Origin: a phage
Reading direction: 5' to 3' (one strand)
Length of the DNA: 50,633 nucleotides
Sequence record: NC_102605.1
In this document: positions 757 through 50,633 of the stretch, one piece after another
How positions within the stretch are numbered: the first letter of the stretch is position 1
How the letters are laid out: every line of letters starts with the position of its first letter
Notes under the pieces: model-generated
What the model saw: only the letters and a program-made list of their open reading frames with translations
What the model was told of the DNA's origin: nothing
Database searches by the model: none
Program-made: the position numbers and the translations under genes

Positions 757-811
757 CAATCAGTCACGAATTGCTATGATTACTTCATCGAAACGAACTG
801 AGGAATTCACG

Positions 812-1246
812 ATGAAATACACAAACAAATACAACGGACAAACTTACTTCATCGAAAACGGCGTTGTGATGTTTGGTAGCGATGGGCTGTTTATGCAATC
901 ATATTCCAGCATTTCAGACTTCAACCGAATGATCGAGTTAGGCGAATTGGTTCCGGTCAAGCCAACGCGTGAAAACTTCCGAGATCTGGTTAACGAGGCA
1001 AAGAAAGACAATCCAGGCTTGCAAATCCGCTTTGTGGCATTCATCGCACACATTGGATTCAAAGAGGCTTACGCCGGAACGATACCACAACGTAACGCTC
1101 GCTTTATTCGTTGGATTACGGATCGAAAGGCTGATTATGTGCGTTTGCGTGGTCACATGGTTAAAAATGATTATTGCACTGGCTATCACAGCATTTTGGA
1201 TCATGACGATTTCACTGATTTCATTGTTTCCGGCGAATGGCTGTAA
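812..1246 (+). CDS. Hypothetical early protein (144 aa)
   Basis: ORF track 776..1246; internal ATG preceded by GAGGA RBS; no recognisable domain. Confidence 0.6.
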   Translation: MKYTNKYNGQTYFIENGVVMFGSDGLFMQSYSSISDFNRMIELGELVPVKPTRENFRDLVNEAKKDNPGLQIRFVAFIAHIGFKEAYAGTIPQRNARFIRWITDRKADYVRLRGHMVKNDYCTGYHSILDHDDFTDFIVSGEWL

Positions 1247-1265: not shown

Positions 1266-1321
1266 CCGGATCGGGGTAACTTGATATAGTTATCCCATCG
1301 AAACGAAATGAGGATTTAGCA

Positions 1322-1480
1322 ATGACTACTTTGATTACCTGGGAACACGAAAACAGCCAGCCAGTAACCCGCGTGTTTGAAACACTTAGTCAGGCGTATT
1401 TGTTGGCTAATCGTGGAGGATATTACAAGGCGCAAGTAATCGGAGAATTTGGAGAGGTAATTTATGAATTCCACGCTTAA
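1322..1480 (+). CDS. Hypothetical small protein (~52 aa), not in ORF track
   Basis: ATG 7 nt after TGAGGA RBS, directly downstream of a cassette. Confidence 0.4.
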   Translation: MTTLITWEHENSQPVTRVFETLSQAYLLANRGGYYKAQVIGEFGEVIYEFHA

Positions 1481-1748
1481 TTTCCGCAGTTACACGCAAA
1501 CGGTAGACTTTGAAGGGGTTAATATTCCACTTCCTAACATATACCGATATATCACGCGTGATAAATTTGGTTTCATTTGCGCGTGGCGGGAAAAGCCAAA
1601 AAAGGTTGGTGATGAATTCGGTGATGGATCTGAAATGCCGATCACGTTAGGTCATCAGCAAGGCGAAAACTTAACGGTTGTTATTCGCAAGTATCGCCGG
1701 AGTCGTACAAACTCAATAATTTCTATCTTTGGGATCGTGGGAGAATAA
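1464..1748 (+). CDS. Hypothetical protein (94 aa)
   Basis: ORF track; GGAGAGG RBS; overlaps the end of the preceding small ORF. Confidence 0.55.
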   Translation: MNSTLNFRSYTQTVDFEGVNIPLPNIYRYITRDKFGFICAWREKPKKVGDEFGDGSEMPITLGHQQGENLTVVIRKYRRSRTNSIISIFGIVGE

Positions 1749-1749
1749 A

Positions 1750-1899
1750 ATGATTTACGTGCTAATTATTGCGCTTCAAACAATGCAAGGCGAGGCGGTA
1801 ACAACGCAAGAATTTCACAGCAAAGCGCGTTGCCTGGAGGCGCGGCAAATAGTCAAAGATAATACTTTTAGCGCCAGGGCATTTTGTGTTTTGAAATAG
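1750..1899 (+). CDS. Hypothetical small hydrophobic protein (~49 aa), not in ORF track
   Basis: ATG after GGGAGAA; its TAG stop is the TAG of the next dyad motif. Confidence 0.35.
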   Translation: MIYVLIIALQTMQGEAVTTQEFHSKARCLEARQIVKDNTFSARAFCVLK

Positions 1900-1914
1900 C
1901 ACTTTTTGTTAAAC
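1894..1914 (+). promoter_or_regulatory. Dyad-motif cassette
   Basis: aaatagcactttttgttaaac, hairpin gccgga/tccggc, cataat, leader cacacatcaaccaatcaggagaa. Confidence 0.6.
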
Positions 1915-1969
1915 GTGCCGGATCTAATTCCGGCATAATACACACATCAACCAATCAGGAGAATCAACG

Positions 1970-5165: not shown

Positions 5166-5222
5166 CGCCGGATCACGTATCCGGCATAATGATTTCAACG
5201 AAAACAAAAGGAGATAAATCAA

Positions 5223-5845: not shown

Positions 5846-5897
5846 GGCTGTAGAATGTTGCCGTTATAATTAGCGGCAACAAGAAGGAGATTTTTAG

Positions 5898-10825: not shown

Positions 10826-10883
10826 TTTACAAATCCTCGTTTCGTTTCGTTGAAATGATTATGCCCCACATAAGCGGGGCCTT

Positions 10884-12184: not shown

Positions 12185-12240
12185 GGTTAATTCTCCGTTT
12201 CGTTCTGATGGGTGCATTATGGCGCATTCCGTTGCGCCTG

Positions 12241-14639: not shown

Positions 14640-14650
14640 TTTTTATCCTT

Positions 14651-14679
14651 TTGACTAAATGCCATTTGCGGCATATCAT
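14651..14679 (+). promoter_or_regulatory. Sigma70-type promoter TTGACT-17-TATCAT for the plus-strand HTH gene
   Basis: Canonical hexamers with 17-bp spacer; overlaps the divergent helicase cassette and its hairpin. Confidence 0.5.
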
Positions 14680-14700
14680 ACACAAACTTAATCAAGTTTT

Positions 14701-14720
14701 TTAGCAAAAAGTGCTATAGG
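14701..14720 (-). promoter_or_regulatory. Dyad-motif cassette (minus orientation) for the helicase gene
   Basis: Reverse complement tatagcactttttgctaaaa; tatgat about 21 bp downstream. Confidence 0.55.
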
Positions 14721-14727
14721 TGAAAAT

Positions 14728-15336
14728 ATGAGCGAAATCAAAATTGCCGCCTCAACTGGCGAAATAGACAAACGCACAATCAATGGTAACAACGGCGTAA
14801 GACGTGGTAAAGATCGCAAACGTCGCGCACCTGTTAGCGGTTATCTTGTATTAAAGGAAGAAGTAAGAGCCGGATTAAAAGCGCGGCTTGATGAAGTTGT
14901 CAACGCTTACGGCGGTTGCGCTGCCCTGGCGCGTGAAATTGGAGTTAACCTTAAAACAGTATGGGGATGGAAAGAGCGCGGCATGATTTCAACTAAAGGC
15001 GCTGAACTGATCCAGAAAGATTACCGCCGCAAAGGTTTTAACGGTTTCCGCGCTTCATATTGCCGTCCAGATATCAAGTTTGATAATAACGGCAAGCCAT
15101 TAGAGAATCGTTGCAGCAACAGAAAGCTGATGCGATTTGTAACCAAAGAGGAAGCGGAAGCAAGAGGATTTGTGCGGCCTTACGATCCGTTACGGTCTAT
15201 GAGTCCAGAAGAACGCGAGAAAGAGAAAGCGCGGCGCAAGGCTGAACGCGACAAGGCGAAAGAAGAACAGCGCAAAGCAAAGGAGGCCAATCAGAAGAAA
15301 CGCGTTGTGATTTCCGTCGATAGCACTGATTGCTAA
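14728..15336 (+). CDS. Cro/YdaS-like HTH DNA-binding protein with Lys/Arg/Glu-rich C-terminal tail (202 aa)
   Basis: HTH signature GGCAALAREIGVNLKTVWGWKERGMIS; AGGTGA RBS. Confidence 0.55.
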   Translation: MSEIKIAASTGEIDKRTINGNNGVRRGKDRKRRAPVSGYLVLKEEVRAGLKARLDEVVNAYGGCAALAREIGVNLKTVWGWKERGMISTKGAELIQKDYRRKGFNGFRASYCRPDIKFDNNGKPLENRCSNRKLMRFVTKEEAEARGFVRPYDPLRSMSPEEREKEKARRKAERDKAKEEQRKAKEANQKKRVVISVDSTDC

Positions 15337-15394
15337 AAATTCCGGCCTGGCATGGTTTATCATCGTGCCAGGTTTTTTATTTGGAGGTTGAGAA

Positions 15395-16476: not shown

Positions 16477-18606
16477 ATGGCTTTATATCGCACTGGTACG
16501 GCTGCAATGGACGCGCAAGGCGTTATCACTGGTACTGGCACAAAATGGCGTGAGCCTCTTTCTCTTATCCGCACTGGCGCAACAATCGTATTTCTCACAT
16601 CGCCTCTTAAATTGGCTGTGATTAGCGATATTGTAAGCGACACGGAAATGAAAGCGATCCAGACTGACGGCGAGCCAGTAGAAAACGGAAATTATGTGAT
16701 CCTGTTGAATGACTCTTTAACGGTAGATGGAATGGCGCAAGATGTTGCGGAAACTCTGCGCTATTACCAAAGTAAAGAAACTGTTATTGAGGAAGCGATT
16801 GAATTTTTCAAAAACTTTGATTTAAAAACATTACAGGATCTTGTTGCTCGCGCTGAGGCTTCCGCTCAAAAAACTGATGCAGACCGAGCCGCGACAGAAC
16901 AATTAAAAAGCGACACGCAAACAATTAAGGATTCCGCCGTTTCTGAAACTCAACAGATTAAAAATGCCGCTGTTTCTGAAACCAATCAGATTAAGGCCGA
17001 CACGGACGCAATAAAAAACCAAACGCAACAGATTAAAGATTCTGCCGTTACTGAGATAACCGGAATTAAAAATGAAGCGTTAGACGCGCGTGATGAAGCG
17101 GAAAAAGCACAATTTGCCGCTGAACAATCAAAAGTTGGTGCTGATAATGCAAAGGCTGGCGCTGAGACTGCGCGTGATGAAGCTCGCCAATGGGCGCAAC
17201 AGGTACAGCCTGAAAATCTGCTGCATAAGGATCAAAACCTTAATGATCTCGCAAACAAAGACCTTGCAAGGGAGGCGCTAAAAGTTGAGGCTGTTAATTC
17301 TGTAAAAGATCAATATGCTGGCGCTTATAATTCTTTTCGTAATCCTGCATGGACTTATGAACTAAGGATCGCGAATAACGGCGAGTGGCGAGTTGCAAGA
17401 AATAGCGATGGATCAACGTCTGTTCTTTCTGTTGGTGCTGGCGGCACTGGTGCGGAAAACGTTACGCAAGCAAAATTAAACTTGCAGATTGATAGATTTG
17501 TGCAAGGTTCAACTTCAACAACGATGAAGATTGGCGACTACACGTTTAGTCTTGGTGATAATGGCGAGTGGGGCGTTGTAAAGAGTGGCGTTAGTGGTTG
17601 GATCGCGCTTGGTGTTGCGCAAGGTGGTACAGGTGCAACAAGCACAGGTCAAGCAAGGCGTAATCTCGGTATTAGTGAATCTGATATACCAATTTTTGGC
17701 GGAGTTGCTCTTGATGCCTTTAATAGCTACACATCTGGAATATTTTACCTAAGAAACAAGAACACTAGCGGCGCTCAAGTTTCGTACTCTCGCGTTTATA
17801 ACGAGATTAAAGGAGGTTTTGCAAAAACAACAATTCATACAACCAGAGAGGGTGGAGGTGCTAACTATTTTCAGATTGATGAAACTGGGCTTGTTAATAA
17901 TGTTAGGGCGATAATATGTTCTCCGTCAAATGTTGGTGGCGATGGATTTACCGTTGGCGTTGTTCCTGGTGGAGGATTTGCAGACTGGAGAGATCGACCT
18001 GCTGGAATGATTGTTGAGCACCCAAGCGATGATGTTGCGGTTAACGTCTTGAAATCTGTCCGTTGGGGCGGAGATTGGGTTATGGGGATTGACGCTGCAA
18101 GGTATGGCGGTGGAGTTTGCGAGGTTCATCTAAATGTAAGGGGAACTACATACACATTTAATGATAATGGTTATGCTTCTGCTGGTCAGTGGGTTAACAC
18201 TTCGGATATTCGACTGAAAGCAAATCTAAAAGAGATTAAAAGCGCTAAAGAAAAAGTGAAATCAATAAAAGGTTACACTTATTTCAAGAGAAATAATCTT
18301 GATGAAGATGAACACTCTTTCTACTCTGAGGAAGCTGGTGTAATAGCTCAAGACGTGCAAAGTGTTTTGCCGGAAGCGGTTTACAATATTTCAGATTCTG
18401 AATATTTAGGTGTTAGCTATGGTGGTGTTACTGCTCTTTTGGTTAACGCAGTAAATGAAATGATCGATGATTCTGATAAGCAAAATGAACTAATTGCAAA
18501 GCAACAGGAGGAAATTAACACATTACGCAACGAGTTAGACGAACTGAAAAACCTTGTAAAATCAATGCTTAGCGGAAATGCTTCAACAATTCCAGAACTA
18601 ACATAA
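16477..18606 (+). CDS. Tail fibre with C-terminal intramolecular chaperone (peptidase S74-like) domain
   Basis: Repeated beta-rich Gly/Thr segments; C-terminal SDIRLK auto-cleavage-type motif followed by coiled coil; GAGGTG RBS. Confidence 0.7.
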   Translation: MALYRTGTAAMDAQGVITGTGTKWREPLSLIRTGATIVFLTSPLKLAVISDIVSDTEMKAIQTDGEPVENGNYVILLNDSLTVDGMAQDVAETLRYYQSKETVIEEAIEFFKNFDLKTLQDLVARAEASAQKTDADRAATEQLKSDTQTIKDSAVSETQQIKNAAVSETNQIKADTDAIKNQTQQIKDSAVTEITGIKNEALDARDEAEKAQFAAEQSKVGADNAKAGAETARDEARQWAQQVQPENLLHKDQNLNDLANKDLAREALKVEAVNSVKDQYAGAYNSFRNPAWTYELRIANNGEWRVARNSDGSTSVLSVGAGGTGAENVTQAKLNLQIDRFVQGSTSTTMKIGDYTFSLGDNGEWGVVKSGVSGWIALGVAQGGTGATSTGQARRNLGISESDIPIFGGVALDAFNSYTSGIFYLRNKNTSGAQVSYSRVYNEIKGGFAKTTIHTTREGGGANYFQIDETGLVNNVRAIICSPSNVGGDGFTVGVVPGGGFADWRDRPAGMIVEHPSDDVAVNVLKSVRWGGDWVMGIDAARYGGGVCEVHLNVRGTTYTFNDNGYASAGQWVNTSDIRLKANLKEIKSAKEKVKSIKGYTYFKRNNLDEDEHSFYSEEAGVIAQDVQSVLPEAVYNISDSEYLGVSYGGVTALLVNAVNEMIDDSDKQNELIAKQQEEINTLRNELDELKNLVKSMLSGNASTIPELT

Positions 18607-20389: not shown

Positions 20390-20445
20390 TTTTATTTCCT
20401 CTCTCGTTGGTTGATGCGTGTAGTATAACACGCATCGAATGGCAG

Positions 20446-25758: not shown

Positions 25759-25769
25759 AGCTTTTAACC

Positions 25770-25790
25770 TTTTGTGCTATTTAAACGTGC
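25770..25790 (-). promoter_or_regulatory. Dyad-motif variant (aaatagcac-aaaag-gttaaaa) abutting the J start codon
   Basis: Motif halves present, but no room for a -10 before the ATG. Confidence 0.35.
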
Positions 25791-35655: not shown

Positions 35656-35675
35656 TATAGCATTTTTTGTTAAAC
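35656..35675 (+). promoter_or_regulatory. Orphan dyad motif in plus orientation inside the minus-strand late operon
   Basis: atagcattttttgttaaa with no plus-strand gene downstream; a hairpin with tattatg loop lies between it and the capsid RBS. Confidence 0.4.
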
Positions 35676-43945: not shown

Positions 43946-44004
43946 TTTCTAAATCTCCGTGTTTCGCTTCAATGAGGACACTTTAACAAATGCCCTCGCG
44001 GAAG

Positions 44005-45259: not shown

Positions 45260-45326
45260 CGATTATTCCTCTGATTGGCCTTGCTTCTCTTGAATAAGGC
45301 CACTATAACAAATGGCCTTGCGCAAG

Positions 45327-45347
45327 TTTTAGCAATTCGTGCTATTT
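45327..45347 (-). promoter_or_regulatory. Dyad-motif cassette (palindromic variant, minus orientation)
   Basis: Reverse complement aaatagcacgaattgctaaaa; hairpin ggcc/ggcc with tatagt-like loop. Confidence 0.55.
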
Positions 45348-46370: not shown

Positions 46371-46427
46371 TCGTCATTCTCCTTGCTTGTCTCGACAAGG
46401 CACACTTTATCAAATGTGCCTTAGCAA

Positions 46428-46448
46428 GTTTTAGCAAAAAGTGCTATT
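46428..46448 (-). promoter_or_regulatory. Dyad-motif cassette (minus orientation)
   Basis: Reverse complement of the motif; hairpin aaggcaca/tgtgcctt. Confidence 0.55.
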
Positions 46449-47558: not shown

Positions 47559-47618
47559 ATTTTTCTATCCTCTCTTGTTGGTTGATGCGGTCATTGTACC
47601 AATCAGCACACATGACCG

Positions 47619-47938: not shown

Positions 47939-47994
47939 TATCCGATCCTCTTTGTTTTGTGTGGGGTCACTATACCGCAACCCCGAAATTTTGT

Positions 47995-48192: not shown

Positions 48193-48245
48193 ACTTCTCC
48201 TGTTTGTTTTGTATTGGCTTACTATACCGCAAGCCCAAAATTCTG

Positions 48246-48814: not shown

Positions 48815-48864
48815 TGTTGATTCTCCTTTGCTTAACTCAACGAGGGACACTATAACAAATGCCC

Positions 48865-48885
48865 CTGATTTAGTTTTAGCAATTC
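48865..48885 (-). promoter_or_regulatory. Dyad-motif cassette (palindromic variant, minus orientation)
   Basis: Reverse complement aatagcacgaattgctaaaa. Confidence 0.5.
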
Positions 48886-49227: not shown

Positions 49228-49283
49228 TTTATTTTCTCCGTTGTGTTTCGATGGGGTAATTATGCCAAACTACCCAGATTCAG

Positions 49284-50121: not shown

Positions 50122-50595
50122 TTATTCATCCTCATTGTTGACAAAGTTGATTTTCACAAGTGCATGAAGCTCTTGCATTACTTTTGCTACGGTTGCGTAT
50201 TCTTCCGGCGCATAGTTTGCCAGGTTTGGCGATAGCGTCATAAAGCGCTCTGCTGCCTTGTTCACTGCCTGGCGCTTGTGCCGTTCAACGTCAGCCTTGC
50301 TATAAACCGTTTTACGTTTCTCATGAGTGAGTGTGATCTTGAATACTTCCATGCCGAAAAGGTTACTTTCGTCATCGTCGCACATTGTCTTTTTGATCTT
50401 GATAGTGCCAACCATTTTTACTTCCGGCACTCGTGACATAGTGGTGCGCACGTATGAAGCCGGATTATCAGATGATTTCTTTCCGGCTAATTCAGTAGCC
50501 AGGTAGCCAGTCGGGATCACGATTTCGGTTTTCTCACCACTGGCGAGCGCCTTTGCTGCCTCGCGTAGTTTTTCGGTAAAGCTCATGTTTTCCAT
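50122..50595 (-). CDS. Hypothetical protein (~157 aa), first gene of the leftward array driven by the 105-140 promoter
   Basis: Track 50122..50628; ATG after AGGAGA RBS (MENMSF...); 5' end duplicated at 1-77. Confidence 0.55.
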   Translation of the reverse strand: MENMSFTEKLREAAKALASGEKTEIVIPTGYLATELAGKKSSDNPASYVRTTMSRVPEVKMVGTIKIKKTMCDDDESNLFGMEVFKITLTHEKRKTVYSKADVERHKRQAVNKAAERFMTLSPNLANYAPEEYATVAKVMQELHALVKINFVNNEDE

Positions 50596-50633
50596 ATGGT
50601 TTCTCCTGATTGGTTTTGATGTGTGCATTATGC
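50519..50633. repeat. Second copy of the terminal direct repeat (identical to 1-115)
   Basis: Exact identity with 1-115. Confidence 0.9.

Follow-up and report, generated by a model that had tools for sequence, protein, structure and literature searches.

The stretch at 1894-1960 of NC_102605.1 raises the question of what a GC-rich hairpin is doing inside a phage promoter, and why similar hairpins recur in one promoter after another with a different sequence and the same complementarity. The DNA analysed here (the window, 50,633 bp) is the complete genome of a TLS-like phage (Drexlerviridae, Tempevirinae, Tlsvirus), whose first 8 kb are 97-99% identical to Escherichia phage Henu4_2 and to Salmonella phages GJL01 and YSP2. 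Its two ends carry an exact 115-bp duplication (1-115 = 50519-50633), which most probably reflects overlap in a circularly permuted or terminally redundant assembly. An earlier reading of this genome, made from the letters without database searches (the sequence-only reading), had described the hairpins and offered two roles for them, an RNA element in read-through transcripts or a DNA structure modulating the promoter.

A stem-loop inside a repeated promoter cassette

A motif scan of the window found about 22 copies of a 21-nt repeat, ATAGCAC-N3-TTGNTAAAA, 20 of which sit in a full cassette of about 90 nt and form its upstream end. Behind the repeat come 19 nt, or 18 in two cassettes, and then a -10-like hexamer, which often has an extended TG; a conserved CA-rich leader (cATCGAAACGAA...), GGAG and the ATG complete the cassette. 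The spacing between repeat and hexamer is constant in 411 of the 472 unique cassettes collected from relatives as described below. The repeat contains a dyad, TAGCA-N5-TGNTA, whose centre would lie near -42 from the transcription start site (TSS) that we infer, and its TTGNTA is 22 bp from the -10 and thus cannot serve as a normal -35. No -35 at 17 bp from the -10 is found in the window cassettes, and a consensus promoter scan misses them.

At the locus under study, the repeat (aaATAGCACTTTTTGTTAAAC, 1894..1914, +; dyad TAGCA-N5-TGTTA), which has been described for TLS (PMC11447400), contains the TAG stop codon (1897-1899, +) of the upstream ORF (1729..1899). The -10-like hexamer CATAAT follows 19 nt past the repeat (1934..1939, +), and a TSS predicted at about 1946 would be followed by the SD sequence AGGAG (1957-1961) and the ATG at 1970 on the same strand. 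The hairpin first noticed here is present, with arms GCCGGA (1917-1922) and TCCGGC (1929-1934) that can be extended to a stem-loop spanning 1915..1936 (+; GUGCCGGA / UCCGGCAU, 6-nt loop) and a 3' arm that abuts and overlaps CATAAT. The 40-nt segment around it has a z score of -6.4, and the RNA fold of the whole of 1894-1960 reaches -15.9 kcal/mol (z -3.8 on the sense strand against -1.5 on the antisense strand).

All eight hairpins that the sequence-only reading had listed were recovered, and its statement that nearly every cassette has one agrees with our folding of the 20 window cassettes: 17 beat dinucleotide shuffles (z of -1.7 or lower), the mean z being -3.2 and the mean MFE -12.5 compared with -5.8 in the shuffles. 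In the same fold no hairpin beyond shuffles was seen at cassettes 737, 2800 and 14717, the last of which (14647..14717, -) is the first promoter of a divergent unit and is without a co-directional upstream gene. A search of Rfam 15 at the gathering score gave no match in the window.

The hairpins had been placed between the motif and the -10, which is correct for about 40% of them and has to be revised for the rest. In the first class (type i), to which the hairpin at 1915..1936 belongs, the hairpin lies wholly between repeat and -10, and its 3' arm reaches just into the first bases of the hexamer (cassettes 1896, 5147, 10901 and 12259). Type i stem-loops are found at 5167..5185 (+, cassette 5147; GCCGGAU/AUCCGGC), 10863..10880 (-, cassette 10901) and 12221..12238 (-, cassette 12259; GGCGCA/UGCGCC). 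In the second class (type ii), the -10 is in the loop or the inner stem, and the 3' arm runs to about 11 nt past the start of the hexamer, just short of the predicted TSS. Type ii stem-loops with the hexamer wholly or partly in the loop include those at 1273..1296 (+, cassette 1247; TATAGT partly in the loop, one G·U pair, z -2.9), 5856..5881 (+, cassette 5827; GUUGCCG/CGGCAAC around TATAAT) and 20413..20436 (-, cassette 20464; TATACT, z -5.6). The other type ii stem-loops, all on the minus strand, are at 43974..43997 (cassette 44023, z -3.9), 45296..45319 (45345, z -4.4), 46396..46423 (46447, z -7.3), 47963..47984 (48012, z -3.4), 48216..48235 (48264, z -3.6), 48843..48866 (48892, z -4.0) and 49254..49275 (49302, z -1.7). 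The stem-loop of cassette 47636 is long and interrupted (47589..47617, -; z -2.5), and that of cassette 15320 (15344..15374, +) has the -10 in its loop and is followed by TTTTTTATTT, forming a canonical intrinsic terminator that corresponds to TLS 'T57'.

Other pairings can be drawn within the cassettes. The dyad of the repeat (e.g. 1897-1911) could itself fold in RNA, as a short hairpin that pairs UAGCA with UGCUA or, through one G·U pair, with UGUUA; its predicted probability in read-through RNA is about 0.8; the dyad is invariant, so covariation cannot test this mini-hairpin. Some cassettes also have complementary bases directly behind the repeat and directly ahead of the SD, which would close an outer helix around the hairpin (CTTGCT/AGCAAG, CTTGC/GCAAG and CCGGTT/AACCGG; 46388-46447 -, 45260-45345 - and 2819-2868 +). 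Sequestration of the SD by upstream sequence in read-through RNA was considered and rejected, SD accessibility across the family being 0.553 with the native and 0.535 with a shuffled upstream sequence.

Outside the full cassettes, the repeat stands without the other elements at 25762-25780 (-) and 35657-35675 (+), which are TLS DR8 and DR7; one of these two copies is upstream of a 1258-aa tail gene, and the other is antisense to late genes, adjoining the capsid region. A consensus sigma-70 promoter (TTGACT-17-TATCAT, 14651-14679, +), which is TLS 'P57', drives a 202-aa protein (14728-15333, in the region 14651-15336), and the sequence of TLS promoter P01 was not found in the window. The 202-aa protein gives a weak Cro/YdaS-like HTH match (E 2e-5, under the Pfam cut-off), the protein in the homologous position of T1 is annotated 'transcriptional regulator', and we regard it as a candidate for the factor that binds the repeat. 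The first rightward cassette is preceded by a 370-bp non-coding stretch (367-736), which may be a regulatory, ori or pac-related region; it contains tctaatcaaa twice, then catcaca-type runs, and three repeats with GTGATC (cgtgatcatattgtgatcgcataacgtgatcgtgaat). A further set of repeats, three imperfect copies of 34 nt with two in tandem, is found at 16913-17054 (+) within a 709-aa ORF (16477..18606).

Conserved pairing on the sense strand

Relatives were collected by a search with the 526-aa DUF3987 protein, which gave 52 related loci (61-100% amino acid identity) with 608 cassettes, 472 of them unique, and orthologous sets were defined by the downstream protein. A strong stem is present in 67% of the unique cassettes and in 14% of shuffles. 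Upstream of the DUF3987 gene itself, orthologous stems read GTTGCCG/CGGCAAC, TTGGCC/GGCCAA, TTGACC/GGTCAA, GGGCCG/CGGCCC and GTGCGG/CCGCAT, and a G·T intermediate, GGCC/GGTC, goes with TTGACC/GGTCAA in this series. Orthologues of the 5147 stem read GCCAGG/CCUGGC, GCCCCGG/UUGGGGC and GCGGGUC/GAUCCGC, and the 10901 group shows compensatory stem changes in the same way.

RNAalifold, run on MAFFT alignments of the orthologous cassettes, called only the invariant dyad of the repeat and not the variable hairpin, to which this procedure is blind because the register of the hairpin shifts by 1-3 nt between clades. In its place we built two covariance models, one for each type, and counted pairs on their alignments. 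On these structure-aware alignments, which are fitted to the structure of the model, 75.4% of the type i cells are paired (59.4% in shuffles, none of 500 reaching the native value, and 27-45% when the partners are slid), as are 79.1% of the type ii cells (58.5% in shuffles, again 0 of 500, and 34-57% slid). Covariation, read from the same fitted alignments, is 0.444 for type i and 0.567 for type ii, compared with 0.217 and 0.211 in shuffles and at most 0.144 with slid partners for either model. Within orthologous groups there are at least 93 compensatory switches, a rough figure from a fixed-register count that register heterogeneity makes noisy.

T1, which belongs to another subfamily, has about 19 cassettes of the same kind, most of them with a hairpin, and blastn finds the cassette in about 975 phage records, mostly of T1-like phages; the cassette is conserved across Drexlerviridae, T1 included. 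The sequence-only reading had argued that selection acts on base-pairing and not on a protein-binding sequence, and had staked this on the hairpins being found again in the orthologous cassettes of relatives. They are: in the 52 related genomes and in T1, orthologues keep the hairpin while the sequence of the stem changes. These results confirm the variable hairpins as genuine, conserved RNA stem-loops that form part of about 20 repeated promoter cassettes.

The strand on which pairing is maintained can be read from the wobble pairs. We used a stem finder that is strand-symmetric, treating G·T and A·C alike, and obtained 214 distinct stems; inside these, on the sense strand, G·T occurs 101 times and A·C 8 times (198 and 261 in shuffles), an excess that could be somewhat inflated by a transcription-linked C>T bias of the non-template strand, and that a cruciform or an antisense structure would not tolerate. 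Counted by orthologous group the figures are 56 and 7, and type i stems alone have 32 G·T and no A·C. The sense fold is the more stable one in 173 stems and the antisense fold in 33, with means of -13.0 and -10.2 kcal/mol. Among the type i loops of 4 nt, 27 of 39 (69%) are GNRA or UNCG, where 4.4% would be expected. Loops of these two kinds stabilise RNA hairpins, and their enrichment argues for selection on stability and not on recognition by a protein. All this points to a structure that is selected on the sense strand only, as RNA. Finally, counted from the start of the -10, pairing is predicted with a high mean probability between -19 and +11 and drops at +12, the inferred TSS. Since predicted pairing stops there, the mRNA made by the cassette's own promoter would lack the 5' arm, and the hairpin would form only in RNA that reads through from upstream.

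Upstream genes, terminators and PeSLs

The position of the upstream gene was examined in 361 cassettes, taking as upstream ORF a co-directional one of at least 50 codons. Its stop codon is the TAG of aTAGcac in 200 cassettes and the TAA of gcTAAaa in 58; in a further 71 it directly precedes the repeat. Where a co-directional ORF lies ahead of the cassette, 77% of cassettes carry a hairpin, as against 33% of the remainder (p 3e-14); with orthologous groups as the unit, the fractions become 0.78 and 0.35 (p 1.5e-5). The divergent, first-in-unit cassette 14717 has a hairpin in none of its 26 unique orthologues, and cassettes 2800, whose group is mostly hairpin-less, and 3732 are exceptions, with an upstream gene and no hairpin. 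The association fits, although imperfectly, a role at the 3' end of the upstream message. Together with the G·T excess, the tetraloops and the stability of the sense fold, the co-directional upstream ORF favours an RNA element in read-through transcripts, which was the first of the two roles that had been offered, against a DNA structure that modulates the promoter.

A hairpin at the end of a gene could be an ordinary terminator. The sequence-only reading had denied this on the ground that U-tracts are missing, which holds for most hairpins but not for all: 24% of type i and 3% of type ii hairpins have five or more T among the 8 nt that follow, and a minority are ordinary terminators, which carry that annotation in T1, TLS and Stevie (four of the cassette hairpins as rho-independent terminators in the T1 record and one in that of Stevie). 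In the window, the hairpin at 15344-15374 has the T-run of a rho-independent terminator; most hairpins have no such run, which makes classical intrinsic termination by E. coli RNA polymerase unlikely for the majority. Orthologous hairpins alternate between U-less forms and canonical terminators, as illustrated by the TLS version of the 10901 cassette (CCCGC-TACG-GCGGG-TTTTG), listed there as T62. The tail of type i coincides with the -10 box and so consists of A/U alone over 5-6 nt, which could give weak termination. The type ii tail is A-rich, with a mean of 1.1 T in the next 8 nt. We conclude, with analogy as our guide, that the common function would be that of a read-through barrier and/or a protective structure at the 3' end; attenuation and stabilisation or processing look alike at the level of sequence.

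The cassette hairpins thus share a GC-rich stem, stable tetraloops and a place just after a stop codon with rho-independent terminators, and differ from these in the U-tract that most of them lack. Hairpins that stabilise mRNA between cistrons are another known class, which includes REP-type elements and the C(UUCG)G hairpins of T4 intercistronic regions. Like them, the present hairpins are stable, without U-tracts, located after a cistron and enriched in UNCG and GNRA loops; unlike them, they are embedded inside a promoter, and here the stabilising role is putative.

The closest known counterparts are the promoter-early stem-loops (PeSLs) of the T4-type phages RB49/phi1, PST and nt-1 (Arbiol et al. 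2010, PMC2839356; Comeau et al. 2014, PMC4122927). In both cases repeated intergenic cassettes, of which the window has 20 full copies, are arranged along the direction of transcription and reach from the upstream stop codon, in an A/T-rich stretch, to the SD and ATG; both contain a stem-loop of variable sequence, with G·T pairs, before the -10 or over it (PMC2839356), and both flank small ORFans and bound indels or replacements. The -10-to-ATG half is also similar in sequence, reading cATCGAAACGAA...GGAGAATCAAAATG in our cassettes, and in the RB49-like phage kaaroe the PeSLs place their hairpins in the same two ways and have an almost identical leader, catcgaaacgaaac...ggagaatcaaaATG. A profile built from the -10-to-ATG halves of the Drexlerviridae cassettes gave 14 PeSL matches in 50 kb of kaaroe, all on the gene strand (best E 7e-5), and none on a reversed decoy; these matches may partly reflect generic -10, SD and ATG features. 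One T1 cassette has an RB49-type stem, GGGAGTA/TACTCCC, followed by ATACCAAAC. The two elements differ in their upstream part: PeSLs have TTGACA 16-17 bp from the -10, whereas here the place of a consensus -35 at 16-18 bp is taken by the 21-nt repeat, which ends 19 bp before the -10. They differ also in their carriers, PeSLs being found in T4-like myoviruses and the present cassettes, known from sequence, in siphoviruses of the Drexlerviridae. Reporter assays in phi1/RB49 only have demonstrated attenuation and strong early promoter activity for PeSLs, the stem-loop of PeSL211/210 reducing lacZ expression about as much as rrnB T1 (PMC2839356).

The repeat has been reported before. The TLS paper lists "18 intergenic 21-base repeats", treats their function as an open question and suggests a stoperator, an enhancer or an UP element (PMC11447400). 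These are the same repeat as ours, in the same positions and orientation, and in Citrobacter phage Stevie they are annotated 'repeat_region'. The words hairpin, stem and palindrome are absent from that paper, and only two linked hairpins, T57 and T62, are in its terminator table. Our literature searches found PeSLs described only for T4-like phages, no paper linking the T1/TLS repeats to stem-loops, nothing past the TLS paper on T1-like transcriptomes or stem-loop descriptions, and no relevant match for 'ATAGCAC'. The cassettes are the Drexlerviridae version of the known PeSL element, with a different upstream promoter element, and no new principle; the repeat (TLS), some of the hairpins as annotated terminators (T1, TLS, Stevie) and the PeSL architecture are already known.

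Role, alternatives and spread of the cassette

The best explanation, to which we give a probability of about 60%, is that the promoter-embedded stem-loop acts on the read-through message of the upstream gene, as an attenuator or as a 3' protector. The hairpin would be the stem-loop part of a compact promoter/stem-loop cassette placed behind the upstream gene's stop codon in the repeat. It would fill the stretch between the end of the repeat and the start of transcription, the one part of the promoter whose sequence is free, and be followed by an unstructured, CA-rich leader after the -10, the SD and the ATG. It would form only in the RNA of polymerases that read through out of the upstream gene, where it would be a stable 3' structure of the upstream message. 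There it would attenuate or terminate read-through, with the all-A/U -10 box of type i as a weak termination tail, or block 3' exonucleases; either way, tandem early transcription units would be insulated from each other. Read-through and the resulting 3' ends are predicted for these units, and the proposed activity, attenuating or stabilising, is modelled on the one PeSL stem-loop tested in phi1/RB49.

An RNA role of another kind, which we hold to be unlikely, is processing or 5' protection: an enzyme such as RNase E would cleave read-through RNA within the AU-rich repeat immediately ahead of the hairpin, and the hairpin would then be a protective 5' stem-loop of the downstream mRNA or guide the cut. 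It would leave the same RNA-level signatures as the best explanation, and the repeat is indeed AU-rich and single-stranded save for the weak predicted dyad hairpin, with hairpins that have no U-tracts. However, the cassette's own promoter already supplies the downstream gene with an mRNA free of the hairpin, canonical terminators and orthologous hairpins replace one another, and the loops look selected for stability only.

The inverted repeats could also act mainly as DNA, by aiding exchange from cassette to cassette as in the 'mini-circles' of PeSLs. Homology breakpoints are about twofold enriched at cassettes (17.5% compared with 8.4% expected, p 7e-6), one RB49 crossover was mapped to the loop, and indels bounded by two cassettes are seen: Stevie is without window 1307-1894, its single cassette aligning to both of the flanking window cassettes, and TLS is without 815-1246 through a cassette-to-cassette deletion. 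The module 1245-1735, moreover, is inverted and relocated in Stevie and another relative. But exchange needs the conserved parts of the cassette and not its variable stem, faster divergence of intergenic DNA would also enrich breakpoints, and a DNA role leaves unexplained the G·T/A·C asymmetry, the RNA-type tetraloops and the dependence on an upstream ORF, so that we find recombination quite improbable as the main role of the hairpin.

We think it more improbable still that a cruciform or a single-strand hairpin presents or hides the -10, as in N4-type or supercoil-sensitive promoters. The -10 in the loop of type ii and the TTGNTA of the repeat, at 22 bp from the -10 and thus beyond the normal -35 distance, are compatible with such a structure. 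A cruciform, however, pairs both strands, yet the wobbles are G·T by 101 to 8 on the sense strand; type i stems lie wholly upstream of -12, where the DNA of an open complex stays duplex; the stems are short (5-9 bp), and the first-in-unit promoter has no hairpin in all 26 orthologues. The hairpin promoters of N4 are a poor model in other respects, as the stems and loops seen here are free to vary, only sense-strand pairing is under selection, and TLS has no phage RNA polymerase gene or sigma gene reported (PMC11447400). Lastly, we reject as barely credible that type i hairpins are antisense terminators, followed on the opposite strand by TTTTAAC (the complement of the repeat), even if a terminator scan flags 10863-10880 and 12221-12238 on that strand, since by the G·T and A·C counts the 32 sense-strand wobbles of type i (against 0 A·C) turn into mismatches there, the antisense fold is weaker, and type ii has no TTTTAAC tail.

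Several observations concern the wider distribution of cassettes and of the genes between them. The gene at 776-1243 (+), between cassettes 737 and 1247, encodes a 156-aa ORFan and is missing from TLS through the cassette-to-cassette deletion. It has C-terminal homologues with about 38-42% identity in RB49-like T4-type phages (kaaroe, Krischvirus), and the Stevie record notes 'Phi1 like' for its counterpart. A complete TLS-type cassette is found at 155-226 of Klebsiella phage KP27 (NC_020080, a T4-like Slopekvirus), where ATTAGCACGAATTGCTAAAA is followed by 19 nt, TATATT and acacaCATCGAAACGAAGGAGGATATCATG, with no hairpin that is obvious; the KP27 record labels it 'putative middle promoter; discovered using MEME', and other Slopekvirus genomes have the same single 24-nt repeat match by BLAST. 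It is conceivable, if doubtful, that one mobile family of promoter/stem-loop modules extends across phage families that are unrelated, from T1-like Drexlerviridae to RB49-like Krischvirus and Slopekvirus (there as one copy), carrying accessory genes between them, and that its U-tract-less hairpin, which ends at the downstream TSS, is an attenuator or 3'-processor for upstream messages only. If true, it would be a compact insulator independent of classical intrinsic termination.

For the phages themselves, the 21-nt repeat of TLS is just the upstream end of a PeSL-type cassette, which addresses the question left open in that work (PMC11447400), and RNA-level selection linked to read-through leads to concrete predictions for the mapping of TSS and 3' ends. 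The cassettes explain part of the modular gene shuffling in the early regions, and suggest that regulatory cassettes and small accessory genes are shared by T1-like and T4-like coliphages. Such sharing bears on the annotation and engineering of therapeutic phages in this common family, the Drexlerviridae.
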